A DNA stretch of 64,000 nucleotides from contig CAZXEE010000002.1 of NCBI GenBank assembly GCA_964639785.1, forward strand, positions 79,273 to 143,272, in the 5' to 3' direction. A program made the translations under genes and the position numbers. Source of the DNA: an uncultured Gammaproteobacteria bacterium (GTDB lineage: Bacteria; Patescibacteriota; Patescibacteriia; Patescibacteriales; UBA12465). Positions 3,790 through 41,658 of the stretch are shown piece by piece. The number at the start of each line of letters is the position of its first letter. Positions within the stretch are counted from its first letter, which is position 1. Below the pieces are notes generated by a model that had not been told where the DNA came from, searched no databases, and was given only the letters and a program-made list of their open reading frames with translations.

Positions 3790-4324
3790 AAAACCGGCCT
3801 TTACGTTATTAGAAGTCATCATATCGGTGGCTATCTTTGCGGTGATCGTCTTGGCGGCTACCCAGATTTTCCAGTCGGTAGTTACTTCCCAGGTAAAGAA
3901 TTATACTGAGACGGCTTTGCAGGATGATATTAAATATTCCTTGGAGGTTTTTACCAGGGAAGCAAGAGGGGCGGTCAAGAATACGACCGGGGCGGCAATC
4001 TGCGATAGCCATATTCCTGATGGGCAGACCTATTATACTGATGGTGCCGCTTTATATTTCAAGAATGCCTTGGGTCAATGTGTTACCTATTATGCCCTTA
4101 CTGATTCTGAGGGTACTATCCGTTTGGTTTTAGATCGGGGCTCCGAATCATATTATCTGAGTTCGGAGCGGGTCGATATTGAGACTTTGGGGTTTGTGGT
4201 GGCTGATTCCGTGACCGTCCAACCGCTAGTAACTATGAATTTGTCTGTGAAGTCGGAAGTTAATCCTAATCTGCCGGCTTTGAATATTCAAACGAGCATT
4301 AGTCCTAATTGGCAAGCTAATTAA
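3773..4324 (+). CDS. Minor pilin, PilW/GspJ-like
   Basis: RKPA|FTLLEVIISVAIFAVIV prepilin-type motif. Overlaps the upstream gene by 17 nt. Confidence 0.75.
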   Translation: MIGVTRKPAFTLLEVIISVAIFAVIVLAATQIFQSVVTSQVKNYTETALQDDIKYSLEVFTREARGAVKNTTGAAICDSHIPDGQTYYTDGAALYFKNALGQCVTYYALTDSEGTIRLVLDRGSESYYLSSERVDIETLGFVVADSVTVQPLVTMNLSVKSEVNPNLPALNIQTSISPNWQAN

Positions 4325-4325
4325 T

Positions 4326-5264
4326 ATGAAAAAAATTCCAAAAAAATTACCTGGCAGTGCTTTATTGATATCACTTTTGATACTGACCGGCATCTTTGTT
4401 ATTGCTTTCGGGGCCGGTTTCTTGTCGTTCTTCAATACGAAGAACACCGATGTATATCAGCAATCGACTAAGGCTCGTTTAGCTGCTGAAACCGGTGTCG
4501 AGAGGATCAAGTGGGAGGTCGAACGGAATAATTTTGATATGTTCAGCAATTGTTCTTCCCGGATGTTTGAAACTAAATTAGATGATGGCTCGTATTACTT
4601 AAAATGTTCTTTGGATGCCTCTGGCAAACCTAAGATCCAGGCTATTGGAACTTATAAGAATTTGTCGGTTACTTTGGACTCCGGATATTGCTATGATATC
4701 AACACTGAGTGTACCAGTGATTGTGCTGTCGGTTCTTTGTGTGGTGGCGGTGTCCTTTTTTCTGTTAGCCCTCGGATGATAGCTTCTCCTTCTGGTTGTA
4801 CTTCAAATGACGGCACTGGTTGCGATAATTCTTTTGTAGCTGAAGATAGTTTGAAAATGGCTTGGGATAGTGTTGAGACTAGCGTCCAGACTGATGCCAC
4901 ATCGACTGACGGCAGCGTTAATACCGCTTTGTTGATTGCTGCCGGTGCTGGCCGTTATACTGCTGCGGAGTTTTGTGATCGCTTGACGGTCAATGGTTTC
5001 GATGATTGGTACCTGCCTTCTTTAGCGGAGTCTCATTCTATGTTTTTAAGCGGGCCATATTGCAATAGTACTGACCTCTACTGTCAGCATGGTTCTTCGG
5101 ATTCGCCGCTTGTCGGTGGCTTGACCCAGGCTGATTATTATCAAACTTCCAATGAAAATATTGCTGATGTTTCTCAGAATTGGTTGTTGAATTTTTATAG
5201 TGATATTCAAGAAGCTAATGGCAAGCTTAAAGACTTTTATATCCGTTGTTTGCGCCGTCCTTAA
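4326..5264 (+). CDS. PilX-like minor pilin fused to a Cys-rich region and a DUF1566 (Lcl C-terminal, lectin-like) domain
   Basis: N-terminus LPGSALLISLLILTGIFVIAF is PilX-N like. C-terminus GFDDWYLPSLAESHSMFL...YIRCLRRP matches the DUF1566 W-LP-x2-E...R-C-hR pattern. Confidence 0.7.
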   Translation: MKKIPKKLPGSALLISLLILTGIFVIAFGAGFLSFFNTKNTDVYQQSTKARLAAETGVERIKWEVERNNFDMFSNCSSRMFETKLDDGSYYLKCSLDASGKPKIQAIGTYKNLSVTLDSGYCYDINTECTSDCAVGSLCGGGVLFSVSPRMIASPSGCTSNDGTGCDNSFVAEDSLKMAWDSVETSVQTDATSTDGSVNTALLIAAGAGRYTAAEFCDRLTVNGFDDWYLPSLAESHSMFLSGPYCNSTDLYCQHGSSDSPLVGGLTQADYYQTSNENIADVSQNWLLNFYSDIQEANGKLKDFYIRCLRRP

Positions 5265-38373: not shown

Positions 38374-39417
38374 ATGAACACCAAAATCATAGCTACTATC
38401 GGCCCCAAATCTCAGGATTATGAGATTTTGAAGGCGATGGTGGTCGGAGGAGTAAATATCGTTCGGATTAACTTTTCTCACGCCACTCCAGAGCAATACC
38501 ATGTCATCAAGGCTAATCTGGATAAGATCAAGGCTGAAACTGGTCTGGAAGTTAAAGTTCTTTTTGATCTTCAGGGTCCTCGGATCCGGGTAGGAAAGTT
38601 AGCTCATGAAGTTGAGATGCGCGAAGGCGAAGTCTATTCTTTCTTGTATAATACTGGAAATGTCGATAATTTTGAGATCCCGATCGATGACGACGGCTTA
38701 GCTGAGGATATCAAGGTAGGCGAGCCATTCTTCTTGGCTAATGGGGATTTGGAATTAAGAGTGGTGGATATCAAGGATGGAGCTATCATGGCTCAGGTTG
38801 AGAGAGGCGGATTATTATTATCCCGCAAGGCTATCAATATCCCGAAGACCGTTTTGAATCGTGACGTTTTGACCCCCAAGGATTTAGAAGATATCAAATT
38901 TGCACTTGAGGTCAAGCCGGATTATGTCGCTATGTCTTTCGTGCAAACCGGTGACAATGTCAGACGTTTGCGCGAATTATTGGGAGATAGCGGAATTGGT
39001 ATTATCGTCAAGATTGAGCGTGGCACCGCCTTGGATTGTATTGATGATATCATCAGGGGGTCAGATGGCGTAATGGTGGCTCGAGGCGATTTAGGTATCG
39101 AAGTTCCTTTAGAAGATCTGCCAATCATTCAGAAGAACTTGATCCGCCATGCTCATTGGCATGACAAGCCAGCTATCGTCGCTACCCAGATGATGATCTC
39201 TATGGTCAACCATCCTCGTCCTACTCGGGCTGAGGTGAGTGACGTAGCCAATGCTATCTTTGACGGCGCTGATTCTTTGATGTTGTCAGATGAAACAGCG
39301 GCTGGCGAATATCCGGTAGAAACCGTCAAGACTATGAAAAAGATTATTGATCGGACTAATAATTATTTCAATAATCGTAATTATTTTGAAGATACTGGTA
39401 TCACTTATAAGAAATAG
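38374..39417 (+). CDS. pyk: Pyruvate kinase, short form lacking the C-terminal regulatory domain
   Basis: NTKIIATIGPKS, MVARGDLGIEVP and ATQMMISMV...PTRAEVSDVANAI motifs. Only 347 aa. Confidence 0.9.
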   Translation: MNTKIIATIGPKSQDYEILKAMVVGGVNIVRINFSHATPEQYHVIKANLDKIKAETGLEVKVLFDLQGPRIRVGKLAHEVEMREGEVYSFLYNTGNVDNFEIPIDDDGLAEDIKVGEPFFLANGDLELRVVDIKDGAIMAQVERGGLLLSRKAINIPKTVLNRDVLTPKDLEDIKFALEVKPDYVAMSFVQTGDNVRRLRELLGDSGIGIIVKIERGTALDCIDDIIRGSDGVMVARGDLGIEVPLEDLPIIQKNLIRHAHWHDKPAIVATQMMISMVNHPRPTRAEVSDVANAIFDGADSLMLSDETAAGEYPVETVKTMKKIIDRTNNYFNNRNYFEDTGITYKK

Positions 39418-39433
39418 GCTTGGTTAGTATATT

Positions 39434-39463
39434 AAAAAGAGGCGGTTTTTACCGCCTCTTTTT
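39434..39463 (+). terminator. Rho-independent terminator after pyk
   Basis: agaggcgg (39438-39445) / ccgcctct (39452-39459), followed by ttttt. Confidence 0.85.
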
Positions 39464-39530
39464 GGTTGACAATGATAGCGGCAAAAGGTTAAACTATAAG
39501 TGTAATTAATAAATATTTTGGCTTAAATAA

Positions 39531-40550
39531 ATGAAAAAAAATGAAGGAAAATTGAAAGTCGCCTTAGCTTCAATGCCGCCTTTTGTTTTTGGTTCAGATA
39601 GCCGGTATTCCGGTTTTGAAGTTGAATTATGGGAAATGATCGCCAAGGAGATCGGAGCTGATTTTGAGTATGAGAAGCATGATTTTCAGGAGTTGATTCC
39701 TCTGGTGGCAGCTCGGAAAGCTGACCTGGCTTTTGCTTCCATAACTATTAATGAAAAAAGGGAAGAAGTGGTTGATTTCTCTCATCCGACTTTCGATTCC
39801 GGCTTACGCATTTTGTTATCGAAGAATCGGAAGAACGTAAATCTGGTTAGCACTATCAAGTCTTTTTTTGTTTCAGGTAAAAAACAATTATTCAAGCCAT
39901 TCTTATTTTTGTTAGGGATAATATTTATCTTCGGAAATGTCCTTTGGCTGGCTGAAAAAGGCGGCGTCATATCCGGATCATATTTTCCTGGAATCTTTCA
40001 GTCTATCTGGTTGTCCTTATGTATCATGATTGGTAATGCGGGTAATTTTTTCGTTTATGGCGTTACTTCTTGGGCGGGAAGATTGGTTGTAACCATGGAG
40101 AAGATTACCAGTCTAGCGATACTCGGTATCTTGATCGGAGAATTGACCGCTTTTCTTACTACCAGAAAAATCAAGTTCAATATTTCTGGTCCGGATGATT
40201 TGCGCGATCGGAAGGTGGCGACGGTAAAGGGGACTACGAGTGAAGCAGTTTTGCGTGATTTAGGAGCTGTAGTCGTTTCCACCTTGACCATTGAAGAAGC
40301 TTATGACAAGCTCAAGGATAATCAGGTTGAGGCTGTAGTCTTTGATTCTCCAATCCTGATACATTATGCTATGCAGGAAGGCTCTAGCTGGTCTTATGTA
40401 GTCGGCGATGTGTTTGAAAGACAGAATTATGGTTTTGTTATGCATAAATCCAGCCCTTTGCGCAAGGTTATTAATTTAGCTATCTTATCGCTCAAGGAAA
40501 GCGGATATTATGAAGCCTTATACCAGAAATGGTTCGGCAAGAGGAAATAA
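39531..40550 (+). CDS. Ionotropic glutamate receptor-like ligand-gated channel (S1 - M1 - pore loop - M2 - S2 architecture)
   Basis: SBP type 3 lobe (KADLAFASITINEKREEVVDFSHP) is interrupted by TM LFKPFLFLLGIIFIFGNVLWL, pore-loop GIFQSIWLSLCIMIGNAG and TM GRLVVTMEKITSLAILGILIGELTAFLTT. The domain then resumes (KVATVKGTTSEAVL...VFDSPIL). Confidence 0.75.
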   Translation: MKKNEGKLKVALASMPPFVFGSDSRYSGFEVELWEMIAKEIGADFEYEKHDFQELIPLVAARKADLAFASITINEKREEVVDFSHPTFDSGLRILLSKNRKNVNLVSTIKSFFVSGKKQLFKPFLFLLGIIFIFGNVLWLAEKGGVISGSYFPGIFQSIWLSLCIMIGNAGNFFVYGVTSWAGRLVVTMEKITSLAILGILIGELTAFLTTRKIKFNISGPDDLRDRKVATVKGTTSEAVLRDLGAVVVSTLTIEEAYDKLKDNQVEAVVFDSPILIHYAMQEGSSWSYVVGDVFERQNYGFVMHKSSPLRKVINLAILSLKESGYYEALYQKWFGKRK

Positions 40551-40641: not shown

Positions 40642-41118
40642 ATGGAAAATATCAAAGAAAGCGATCTTTTTAAACATTATTCGGATATTATTGACGGGAA
40701 TTGCTTGTCAGTTTCCGGAGATGTGTCAGAAATCAAGGAAAAATTAGCTGAATGGTTGGAGTTCCAAGATCAGATTTTCAATCAAGCTTCATGGTGGAAA
40801 CTATTCAAGCGGAATTGGTGTGTCAGGCACAACAAGTATCAATCTTTTGATCCTTTTATTTCCAATGATCCGCCGGAACATAGCGTCGGATCTTGTTCGG
40901 AGATATTCCTAAGGGATGTCTTTACCAATCCTTTTCCTTCCTCGTATGACATGGATGATTGGGCTCTTTCGATAAAGCTAGCTGATATCTTTATCCTAAA
41001 AGGGGTAACTAGGAGAGCTTCTTCGAATTTCTTCGTTCATGTCAAAAATCATTTCGTCAATCATCGGATGGTCCGAGGAGTCATCCAATTTGACATCTAT
41101 CGCGTTAAAAATTATTGA
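40642..41118 (+). CDS. Hypothetical protein (158 aa)
   Basis: ORF followed by a strong terminator. I recognised no family. Confidence 0.45.
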   Translation: MENIKESDLFKHYSDIIDGNCLSVSGDVSEIKEKLAEWLEFQDQIFNQASWWKLFKRNWCVRHNKYQSFDPFISNDPPEHSVGSCSEIFLRDVFTNPFPSSYDMDDWALSIKLADIFILKGVTRRASSNFFVHVKNHFVNHRMVRGVIQFDIYRVKNY

Positions 41119-41127
41119 GCTTACCTC

Positions 41128-41155
41128 AAAAACTGCGGCTAACCGCAGTTTTTTA
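41128..41155 (+). terminator. Rho-independent terminator
   Basis: aactgcgg (41131-41138) / ccgcagtt (41143-41150), followed by tttttt. Confidence 0.85.
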
Positions 41156-41174
41156 TTATATTTATGGACTTTTT

Positions 41175-41203
41175 TTGACTTTTCTGTTCATCTTTTGTAT
41201 ACT
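41175..41203 (+). promoter_or_regulatory. Predicted rnpB promoter TTGACT, 17-nt spacer, TG-extended TATACT
   Basis: ttgact at 41175-41180 and tgTATACT at 41196-41203. Confidence 0.6.
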
Positions 41204-41207
41204 AGGG

Positions 41208-41582
41208 TTAGTTGGGATAGGCGGATAGCCGCCCTTTGCTTTGGGCATCGGGAGGAAAGTCCGGACTCCTGGGCCTCTTTAGGCCAGCGATAGTGGGTAA
41301 CGCCCACCGGACCCTTCCGAGGGTTTAGGGAAAGTGCCACAGAGACTATACTAATCCGTCTTCGGGCGGATGAAAGGTGAAAAGTTGGCTATTCATAGCC
41401 TTCGCCCTCTGGCGACAGAGGTGCGTGGTAAACCCTATCGGGGAGCAAGAACAAACCTTATCCTTCGGGCTAAGGAAAAAGTAGTTCGCCAGACCTTAAT
41501 AGTAATATTAGGGCTAGATAAATGGCTATCCAGGGAAATTGATTTTTCCCGGACAGAATCCGGCTTATAGCCTTTCTCAATC
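41208..41582 (+). ncRNA. rnpB: RNase P RNA, bacterial type A
   Basis: Conserved blocks GGAGGAAAGTCCGGAC, AGTGCCACAGA, GGTAAACCC and ACAGAATCCGGCTTA. P1 pairing gttgggataggc / gcctttctcaat. End coordinates are approximate, within a few nt. Confidence 0.9.
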
Positions 41583-41658
41583 ATGCAGAAATCAAAAAAC
41601 AAAGATCAAACATTTTGATTTTTGCCTTTTGCCTTTTGTTTAAAAATTAATTTACAAT

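Follow-up and report, generated by a model that had tools for sequence, protein, structure and literature searches.

A signal-less member of the ionotropic glutamate receptor family in Patescibacteria, with a derived pore loop and a predicted cytoplasmic ligand-binding domain

We analyzed a stretch of 64,000 nucleotides, here called the window, from contig CAZXEE010000002.1 (assembly GCA_964639785.1, positions 79,273 to 143,272 of the forward strand), deposited under the name of an uncultured Gammaproteobacteria bacterium and placed by GTDB in the Patescibacteriota. It encodes a compact protein of the GluR0/ionotropic glutamate receptor (iGluR) superfamily, in which a two-lobe amino-acid-binding clamshell (halves S1 and S2) is interrupted by a small membrane domain made of a helix M1, a re-entrant pore loop P, and a helix M2. 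In a comparison covering about 200 relatives, the homologs from the candidate phyla radiation (CPR, or Patescibacteria) lack a signal peptide and carry their positive charges on the other side of the membrane domain from the homologs that have one. The explanation that we favor, to which we give a probability of about 0.6, is that the protein is a signal-less, inverted subunit of this superfamily, with a cytoplasmic sensor and a pore that has probably lost its K+ selectivity. To our knowledge, every characterized iGluR, from Synechocystis GluR0 to the human NMDA receptors, senses its ligand outside the cell and has its pore upside down relative to potassium channels.

That the protein is a genuine member of the iGluR/GluR0 family with the S1-M1-P-M2-S2 organization is nearly certain. 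A first-pass annotation, made from the sequence by eye, had already proposed this layout from segments that we found in the open reading frame (ORF) exactly as quoted, and the SBP_bac_3 profile, an AlphaFold 2 (AF2) model, and Foldseek all agree with the split binding domain. That annotation had called for searches with the SBP_bac_3 and Lig_chan profiles, and the outcome is mixed. SBP_bac_3 gives a single split match (residues 12 to 337, E = 8.4e-31) and Lig_chan-Glu_bd (PF10613), on which the likeness of S1 to iGluRs rests, passes its gathering score (residues 14 to 99, 45.2 bits against a cutoff of 30, E = 1.2e-11), but Lig_chan itself (PF00060) matches residues 155 to 228 with 28.1 bits (E = 2e-6), marginally under its cutoff of 30.8. 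NCBIfam gives only partial matches, to amino-acid-binding proteins and far under the cutoffs. The best solved relative is 2pyy, the ligand-binding core of a bacterial iGluR of Nostoc punctiforme (E = 4.8e-42), with eukaryotic delta, NMDA, and AMPA receptors next at about 1e-15 in alignments that extend through the membrane part; the GluR0 structures 1ii5 and 1iit match at an E value of about 9e-20. The AF2 monomer model, built from an alignment of 94 sequences, has a mean predicted local distance difference test score of 91.5 and shows two lobes with a helical insert (residues 117 to 215) that holds M1, the pore helix, an extended loop, and M2 at the positions given in Table 1, preceded by a pre-M1 helix (residues 105 to 115). 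The top 50 Foldseek matches are dominated by chains covering the ligand-binding and transmembrane domains (LBD-TMD) of AMPA receptors (E values from 1e-23 to 4e-22, 372 to 395 aligned columns), and the TM-score to AMPA-type LBD-TMD chains is 0.5 to 0.68. Neither the sequence nor these structural comparisons revealed an ABC-permease-like fragment or an extra N-terminal helix, which the first-pass annotation had named as findings that would count against it. The protein has no amino-terminal domain, as it begins at S1, and both sequence and AF2 model lack an M4 helix after S2, where the chain stops at the last S2 helix.

The ligand-binding residues are well preserved. R77 and D272 are invariant in the 94 sequences, and their aligned counterparts in 2pyy and in the glutamine-binding protein GlnBP are likewise an Arg and an Asp; P274 is also invariant and T72 is near-invariant. 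According to Ger et al. 2010 (PMC2950845), the S1 Arg and the S2 Asp are the ligands of the alpha-carboxyl and alpha-amino groups. Because the T72/R77/D272 triad is intact and aligned with known ligand residues, the ligand is predicted to be an alpha-amino acid.

The absence of a signal peptide, which had been noticed in this single gene, holds throughout the clade. There are 7 residues ahead of the first beta-strand in the binding domain, the protein has no hydrophobic N-terminal segment, and an in-frame TAA does lie immediately 5' of the ATG, as had been stated. About 100 CPR homologs of about 338 residues begin at this first beta-strand. A genome scan with one genome per GTDB species yielded 80 loci and gave a view independent of gene calling: in 29 CPR-type loci, only 0 to 27 in-frame codons separate the upstream stop from the first beta-strand, whereas the non-CPR loci, at least 47 in number, all have a classical hydrophobic signal peptide. 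The signal-bearing loci come from Desulfobacterales, Acidobacteria, Cyanobacteria, Alpha- and Betaproteobacteria, Armatimonadetes, and Marinimicrobia.

The distribution of positive charges around the membrane helices flips with the presence of the signal peptide. In the protein set, the signal-less homologs (n = 103) have 6.0 to 7.0 Lys and Arg residues in the linkers on the binding-domain side and 2.1 to 2.6 in the M1-P and P-M2 loops, whereas the signal-bearing ones (n = 14) have 3.8 on the binding-domain side and 5.7 on the loop side. The genome set behaves alike: 27 of the 29 signal-less loci are more positive on the binding-domain side, the other 2 being ties, and in 47 of 49 signal-bearing loci the excess of positive charge is on the loop side. 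The net charge of the linker before M1 is +3.6 in signal-less and +0.3 in signal-bearing proteins, that of the linker after M2 is +1.7 and 0.0, respectively, and the two groups do not differ in the bulk charge of S1 and S2. We considered AT-richness as a source of the Lys-rich linkers and rejected it, since CPR loci with 46 to 55% GC keep the bias and since the opposite loops are poorer in Lys and Arg than those of GC-rich homologs. As controls, the exported proteins encoded in the window, which also encodes SecA, carry classical Sec or lipoprotein signals, and, in a related CPR genome, an SBP_bac_1 protein is anchored by its N terminus.

We infer a cytoplasmic clamshell because the signal peptide is missing and because the positive-inside charge bias flips with signal-peptide status. 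The first-pass annotation had suggested the same placement, and a potassium-channel orientation, from one gene; the flipped bias across homologs supports it and turns it into a probable clade-wide pattern backed by two predictors. For this particular protein, we regard a cytoplasmic binding domain as likely. The protein would thus be a stand-alone pore-loop subunit that most likely keeps its binding domain in the cytoplasm and whose pore loop enters the membrane from outside, as in KcsA. The bundle-crossing gate would then lie on the cytoplasmic side, and the arrangement of the binding domain and the M2 bundle crossing with respect to each other stays the same. Because the links of the binding domain to M1 and M2 are those of iGluRs, the mechanism by which the clamshell pulls on the gate should hold in either orientation: a cytosolic alpha-amino acid could close the clamshell via T72, R77, and D272, and the M2 gate would be pulled open. 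Assembly as a tetramer is assumed by homology. The physiological role could be to couple ion flux to the cytosolic amino-acid pool. On the scale of the clade, the CPR proteins would have dropped the signal peptide while positive charges moved from the pore-side loops to the linkers of M1 and M2. We lean toward the view that the whole CPR radiation, including members with a TVGYGD filter, the derivative without GYG, and at least one further pore type, was secondarily flipped in the membrane. Loss of the signal peptide together with the relocation of about 5 positive charges would be a plausible route for this flip, and these proteins would then probably be the first channels of the iGluR family to combine a cytoplasmic clamshell with a potassium-channel orientation.

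The family around this protein suggests how the pore may have changed. A large-database search retrieved 276 homologs, and every named one is from Patescibacteria/CPR (Nomurabacteria, Uhrbacteria, or "Patescibacteria group"). Four types form a graded series in the family alignment: proteins of 361 residues that combine a classical signal peptide with a TTVGYGD filter, proteins of about 338 residues with the same filter and no signal peptide, signal-less proteins with MSTDSFGD, and the clade of our protein, with members 52 to 64% identical and a longer loop without GYG, (I/L)G(S/L)(D/P)G-x-x-F-VY. Counted from W160 to the G183-R184 pair that opens M2, this loop exceeds that of the TVGYGD relatives by about 2 residues. 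Neighbor-joining trees were built from binding-domain columns only (215 columns, thus independent of the pore) and rooted with soluble glutamine-binding proteins. In these trees, our protein falls within the CPR clade that lacks the signal, the sister of this clade is formed by signal-bearing GYG proteins of Acidobacteria, and the prokaryotic homologs known as Group 2 stand apart. Since the signal-less proteins form one clade with such a sister, the loss of the signal peptide is most parsimoniously a derived state. The loss of GYG is likewise a separate derived event, because the same trees put our protein in the CPR radiation, far from Group 2. The ancestral filter would have been TVGYGD, kept in sister CPR paralogs, followed by a TDSFGD-like form and then by the longer loop without GYG; the TDSFG forms are plausible intermediates in the decay of the filter. 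K+ selectivity has probably been lost in the process, leaving either a nonselective cation channel or altered or weak conduction. We see about even chances that the pore is both conducting and not selective for K+.

Several other loci add to this diversity. A third signal-less pore type has the loop WWT(V/T)x(M/L)MxG(V/A)GG(F/T/S)YP(E/D)S (e.g., GGVGGFYPES) in place of TVGYGD; it occurs in L031, L033, L036, L037, and L044 (about 4001 to 4999 in each), at 28 to 31% GC, with an inverted charge bias of +4 to +7. An odd family member (locus L032, 4001 to 5002, and protein P0155) has the filter GMLGYGG and 77 to 82 open codons upstream, in which no hydrophobic signal is convincing; its charges are weakly biased to the binding-domain side (+2). 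It branches beside the signal-less clade and may represent an intermediate state. On contig L084 (1939 to 3115 and 7779 to 9038; also L083 and L003), a K-filter paralog positive for Ion_trans_2 and a paralog without GYG are about 6 kb apart. Because both types coexist on this contig, they are not simple replacements of each other, and the two may have divided functions or may co-assemble. Finally, metagenome-assembled genomes labeled "uncultured Gammaproteobacteria" or "Bdellovibrionales" (L004, L013, L030, L031, L036, and L044; 28 to 46% GC) carry the signal-less CPR-type gene. These six are probably mislabeled or misbinned Patescibacteria; otherwise, the signal-less form would exist outside the CPR.

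The pore had been described as eukaryote-like and as devoid of the TxVGYG-type filter of potassium channels. The latter is correct: the loop reads IGNAGNFFVYG, and the Pfam profile search gave no Ion_trans_2 (PF07885) match at E values up to 1, a match that sister CPR proteins do show. The former needs to be revised, as the similarity to GluA2 is real but smaller than that to the K-filter relatives. The GluA2 pore and gate strings, which the first-pass annotation had cited, proved accurate and in register: HMMER comparisons with 4u5f_A and 9mrk_A align GIFQSIWLSL with GIFNSLWFSL and ELTAFLT with NLAAFLT. In the gate segment ILIGELTAFLT, 5 of 9 positions match SYTANLAAF (L, A, and F are identical; Ile for Thr and Thr for Ala are similar by HMMER). 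Still, when only the membrane segment is compared, its similarity to GluA2 is not significant (E values of 0.45 to 0.65), and a PDB search with this segment alone gave no iGluR match, only spurious weak ones (TRH receptor, RAP1). Pairwise BLOSUM62 alignments of the P-to-M2 segment score 170 to 182 within the clade of our protein, 117.5 against the CPR TDSFG type, 89.5 to 103 against the CPR GYG type, 69.5 against GluR0-like proteins of Desulfobacterales, 67.5 against rat GluA2, and, the lowest, 34.5 to 47.5 against cyanobacterial and alphaproteobacterial Group 2 proteins. When 1.84 billion representative proteins were searched with this segment, the 78 matches were all short bacterial proteins of 149 to 490 residues, mostly with TVGYGD, and none was an iGluR of eukaryotic size. 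We could view our protein as a bacterial representative of the lineage ancestral to eukaryotic iGluRs, with a specifically eukaryote-like pore; the two motifs in register, the 21 of 60 P-to-M2 residues identical to rat GluA2, and the fact that Lig_chan is the sole Pfam match of the pore domain would fit. Yet this seems very improbable. The K-filter relatives pass the cutoff of the Lig_chan profile, itself derived from eukaryotes, and outscore our clade on it (31.7 to 41.2 bits against 18.7 to 29.0), the pore of GluA2 is less similar than those of the K-type CPR proteins and equal to those of the Desulfobacterales proteins, and no eukaryotic iGluR is among the 78 matches. Moreover, the loop is 3 to 4 residues longer than that of GluA2 (the HMMER alignment opens a gap of 3 residues in it), with Gly and Asn at the QQ positions and no Gln at the Q/R site, the trees nest the protein in the GYG-bearing CPR radiation, and both the amino-terminal domain and M4 are missing. 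The TAFL motif is also present in the K-type relatives from CPR. The pore helix with GIFxSxW and the gate with TAFLT are features of the whole family rather than marks of a specific eukaryotic affinity, and the loop without GYG is a secondary, lineage-specific decay of the K+ filter inside the Patescibacteria clade.

The protein could have kept the classical orientation, with M1 acting as a reverse signal anchor that translocates the 115-residue S1 and with the binding domain outside, so that it would function as an extracellular sensor-channel like GluR0. CPR bacteria depend on amino acids supplied from outside, which makes an outward sensor biologically sensible, and the net charge of S1 (-3.1) is no bar to export. 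In addition, all experimentally characterized members of the family have external binding domains (PMC13099474). However, the charges before M1 and after M2, with neutral loops opposite, are the reverse of those in signal-bearing homologs; S1 is a folded alpha/beta domain with about 12 Lys and Arg in 93 residues; homologs in other phyla all keep their signal peptides, implying that the family normally needs one; and other exported proteins of the same genome have ordinary signal peptides. We consider the classical orientation unlikely. A number of observations nevertheless weigh against the inverted subunit that we prefer. Its orientation is deduced from the positive-inside rule and the missing signal peptide, and long N-terminal domains are occasionally exported without a signal peptide, as in Escherichia coli ProW. 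Two CPR proteins (L026 and L038) have no charge bias. The signal-less and signal-bearing groups are each largely one clade, such that the Mann-Whitney test (p = 1.6e-11) is pseudo-replicated and the correlation between signal and charge may reflect very few evolutionary events. The bootstrap support of the signal-less clade is modest (38 to 44 of 100), and the CPR proteins are basal in 21 of 100 replicates. The Lig_chan score is 2.7 bits short of the Pfam cutoff. Finally, no part of the membrane domain is less conserved than the filter loop (identity of 0.40), which means that conduction is not assured.

This last point could be taken further, with a membrane domain that does not conduct at all, the degenerate pore loop being part of a membrane-anchored amino-acid-binding sensor or scaffold. 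Filter-loop identity is 0.66 in the K-type CPR relatives and 0.99 in the signal-bearing GYG forms, the potassium-channel signature and the Ion_trans_2 match are gone, and the paired paralogs of L084 would let one copy change function. Against this, M1, the pore helix, and M2 (0.54 to 0.61, with M2 at 0.61) are as conserved as the binding domain (0.63), and G154, W160, G168, Y176, W181, G183, and R184 are near-invariant across 63 members of the clade. Because M2 is nearly as conserved as the binding domain and these anchor residues are kept, the membrane domain is still under selection. The TAFLT gate motif is also retained, AF2 gives a canonical M1-P-M2 unit at high confidence, and the absence of GYG is shared with Group 2 and with eukaryotic iGluRs, which do conduct. 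A pseudo-channel is, in our opinion, quite improbable. One might also suspect an artefact of annotation or assembly, i.e., a truncated gene, a pseudogene, or a fragment of an ABC-transporter binding protein or permease, given that public databases name homologs "polar amino acid transport system substrate-binding protein". But more than 100 full-length homologs share the start and the length, in-frame stops lie directly upstream in many genomes, the gene is preceded by a terminator hairpin and a promoter-like site of its own, and the confident AF2 model matches iGluR LBD-TMD structures and not ABC permeases. The upstream stops, the model, and the Foldseek matches led us to reject the permease fragment and the pseudogene, and the odds of any such artefact are negligible.

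Ger et al. 2010 (PMC2950845) defined the prokaryotic Group 1, with a K filter, and Group 2, without it. Like Synechocystis GluR0 (slr1257) and Group 1, our protein is compact, with S1-M1-P-M2-S2, no amino-terminal domain, no M4, and the same Arg/Asp pair, and its nearest pore relatives share the TVGYGD filter of that group. It differs from GluR0 in having no signal peptide, an opposite charge bias, no GYG, and no Ion_trans_2 match. The signal peptide of GluR0 spans residues 1 to 19 (bioRxiv 10.1101/2021.01.27.428399), and its orientation was first mapped experimentally in 2026, when PhoA fusions placed the N and C termini outside, opposite to KcsA (PMC13099474). With Group 2 (the Nostoc punctiforme GluR0 of 2pyy and homologs from Cyanobacteria, Alphaproteobacteria, and Armatimonadetes) it shares a pore loop that is not of the K type, but these proteins have signal peptides, a positive bias on the loop side, and a shorter, Gln-containing loop (WWAAATLATQADEMPK). 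The trees keep it apart from the Group 2 clade with the TQADEMP loop, and because Group 2 is a separate clade with the least similar pores, the loss of GYG is best seen as independent. AMPA-type iGluRs (GluA1-4 LBD-TMD) provide the best whole-chain structural match, with GIFxSxWxSL and xLxAFLT in register; unlike them, our protein has no amino-terminal domain, M4, signal peptide, or Q/R-site Gln, and its predicted orientation is opposite. Some channels with the potassium-channel fold and canonical orientation, such as MthK with its RCK domain, MloK1 with its CNBD, and KirBac, have a cytoplasmic ligand-binding domain on the inner helix. In contrast to these, the sensor here is a clamshell of the periplasmic-binding-protein type that is also tethered to M1, with the channel inserted within it, and there is no K filter. 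With neither a signal peptide nor coding room for one, and with the opposite charge bias, the protein also appears to depart from the extracytoplasmic binding domain that otherwise marks the iGluR family.

The idea of a cytoplasm-facing iGluR has one precedent in the literature. Ger et al. 2010 (PMC2950845) reported 4 of 22 channels without a signal peptide and listed three explanations, among them that these are "oppositely oriented"; this study predates the CPR genomes, and it raised the opposite orientation in one sentence without testing it. We found no other literature on iGluRs of CPR/Patescibacteria or on iGluRs facing the cytoplasm.

The origin of the pore inversion of iGluRs is a long-standing question. 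If our explanation is right, the clade of our protein and its signal-bearing relatives, which are about 40% identical, would form a natural matched pair to study the determinants of orientation. Should the orientation be confirmed, ultra-small symbiotic bacteria would possess channels that are gated by their cytosolic pool of amino acids, which would be physiologically a new class. The stepwise decay of the K+ filter, from TVGYGD through TDSFGD to the longer loop without GYG, would be independent of the pores of eukaryotes and Group 2 and could inform us on the evolution of selectivity. The names of these proteins in databases, those of ABC-transporter substrate-binding proteins, leave the channel part unnoticed. 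Public entries (P0007, P0013, P0027, P0034, and others) are called "polar amino acid transport system substrate-binding protein", "transporter substrate-binding domain-containing protein", or, in UniRef, by a truncated name that starts with "Extracellula…"; the channel insert is unannotated in them, and the last name may be wrong for the clade of our protein.

Table 1. Features of the channel gene and of its upstream region (positions in the window)
Feature	Position	Strand	Basis
Strong hairpin flanked by runs of A and T, located between the genes for pyruvate kinase and the channel	39431..39466	+	Direct folding
Candidate sigma-70-like promoter (TTGACA, 18-nt spacer, TAAACT)	39466..39495	+	Consensus match, about 35 bp 5' of the ATG
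Complete coding sequence of the signal-less iGluR/GluR0-like S1-M1-P-M2-S2 protein, 339 residues plus stop	39531..40550	+	ORF, Pfam, AF2, Foldseek
S1 half of the clamshell, residues 8-100, with T72 and invariant R77-E78	39552..39830	+	Lig_chan-Glu_bd; alignment to 2pyy and GlnBP
S1-M1 linker with pre-M1 helix, residues 101-116, Lys/Arg-rich (KNRKN...K...KK)	39831..39878	+	AF2
M1 transmembrane helix, residues 117-142, invariant E142 at its end	39879..39956	+	AF2
Re-entrant pore helix, residues 151-167, YFPGIFQSIWLSLCIMI; G154 and W160 invariant in the clade	39981..40031	+	AF2, conservation
Selectivity-filter loop, residues 168-180, GNAGNFFVYGVTS, non-helical, GYG lost	40032..40070	+	AF2, conservation
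M2 inner helix, residues 181-215, with GELTAFLTT in the gate region and then a basic RKIK segment	40071..40175	+	AF2, alignment to GluA2 M3
S2 half of the clamshell, residues 222-337, invariant D272; protein end	40194..40541	+	94 bits to the S2 region of 2pyy

The channel gene stands alone, with a terminator-like hairpin and a promoter-like site upstream (Table 1). The hairpin has a folding energy of -23 kcal/mol (z = -7.15), and none of 200 shuffled sequences was equally stable. It was overlooked by a simple terminator scan, because its T run pairs into the stem, and was recovered by direct folding; being terminator-like, it would set the channel gene apart as its own transcription unit. The promoter candidate has 10 of 12 consensus matches, although such sites are no more common in the region than expected from shuffled sequences. 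There is no second copy of the channel gene in the window.

We found no conserved neighborhood that hints at a function: P0013 and P0047 lie amid unrelated housekeeping genes. Pairing with an HTH_3 regulator was considered and rejected. A small HTH_3/XRE-family gene lies immediately upstream of each paralog of L084, but the pairing recurs only in the close relatives L003 and L083, and the window has no such gene. The two HTH_3/XRE proteins of L084 are 36 to 38% identical to each other. In the window, the upstream neighbors of the channel gene encode an HtpX-like M48 peptidase and a pyruvate kinase, and a 158-residue ORF, an RNase P RNA, and a sugar transferase gene follow downstream. The 158-residue ORF (40642 to 41118, plus strand), directly 3' of the channel gene, has no Pfam match, and no link to the channel emerged in other genomes. 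The pyruvate kinase (38374 to 39417, plus strand) has only 347 residues, with the Pfam PK barrel at residues 2 to 318 and no match to the C-terminal alpha/beta domain in Pfam at E values up to 0.001.

The window as a whole is CPR-like, with many genes for proteins resembling type IV pilins and an RNase P RNA of bacterial class A (41213 to 41583, plus strand, 203.7 bits). Four ORFs over this RNA are spurious (41039 to 41293, 41188 to 41340 on the minus strand, 41370 to 41570, and 41435 to 41602 on the minus strand). Near the start of the window, a perfect direct repeat (100% identity) of at least 300 nucleotides (380 to 679 and 932 to 1231, spacing of 552) corresponds to a tandem duplicate of a type-IV-pilin-like gene of 147 residues (ORFs 384 to 827 and 936 to 1379), whose products differ only near the C terminus. 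Further prepilin-type N termini (xFTLIELxxxIAIIG) are encoded by the ORFs at 2723, 3773, 10221, and 24693.

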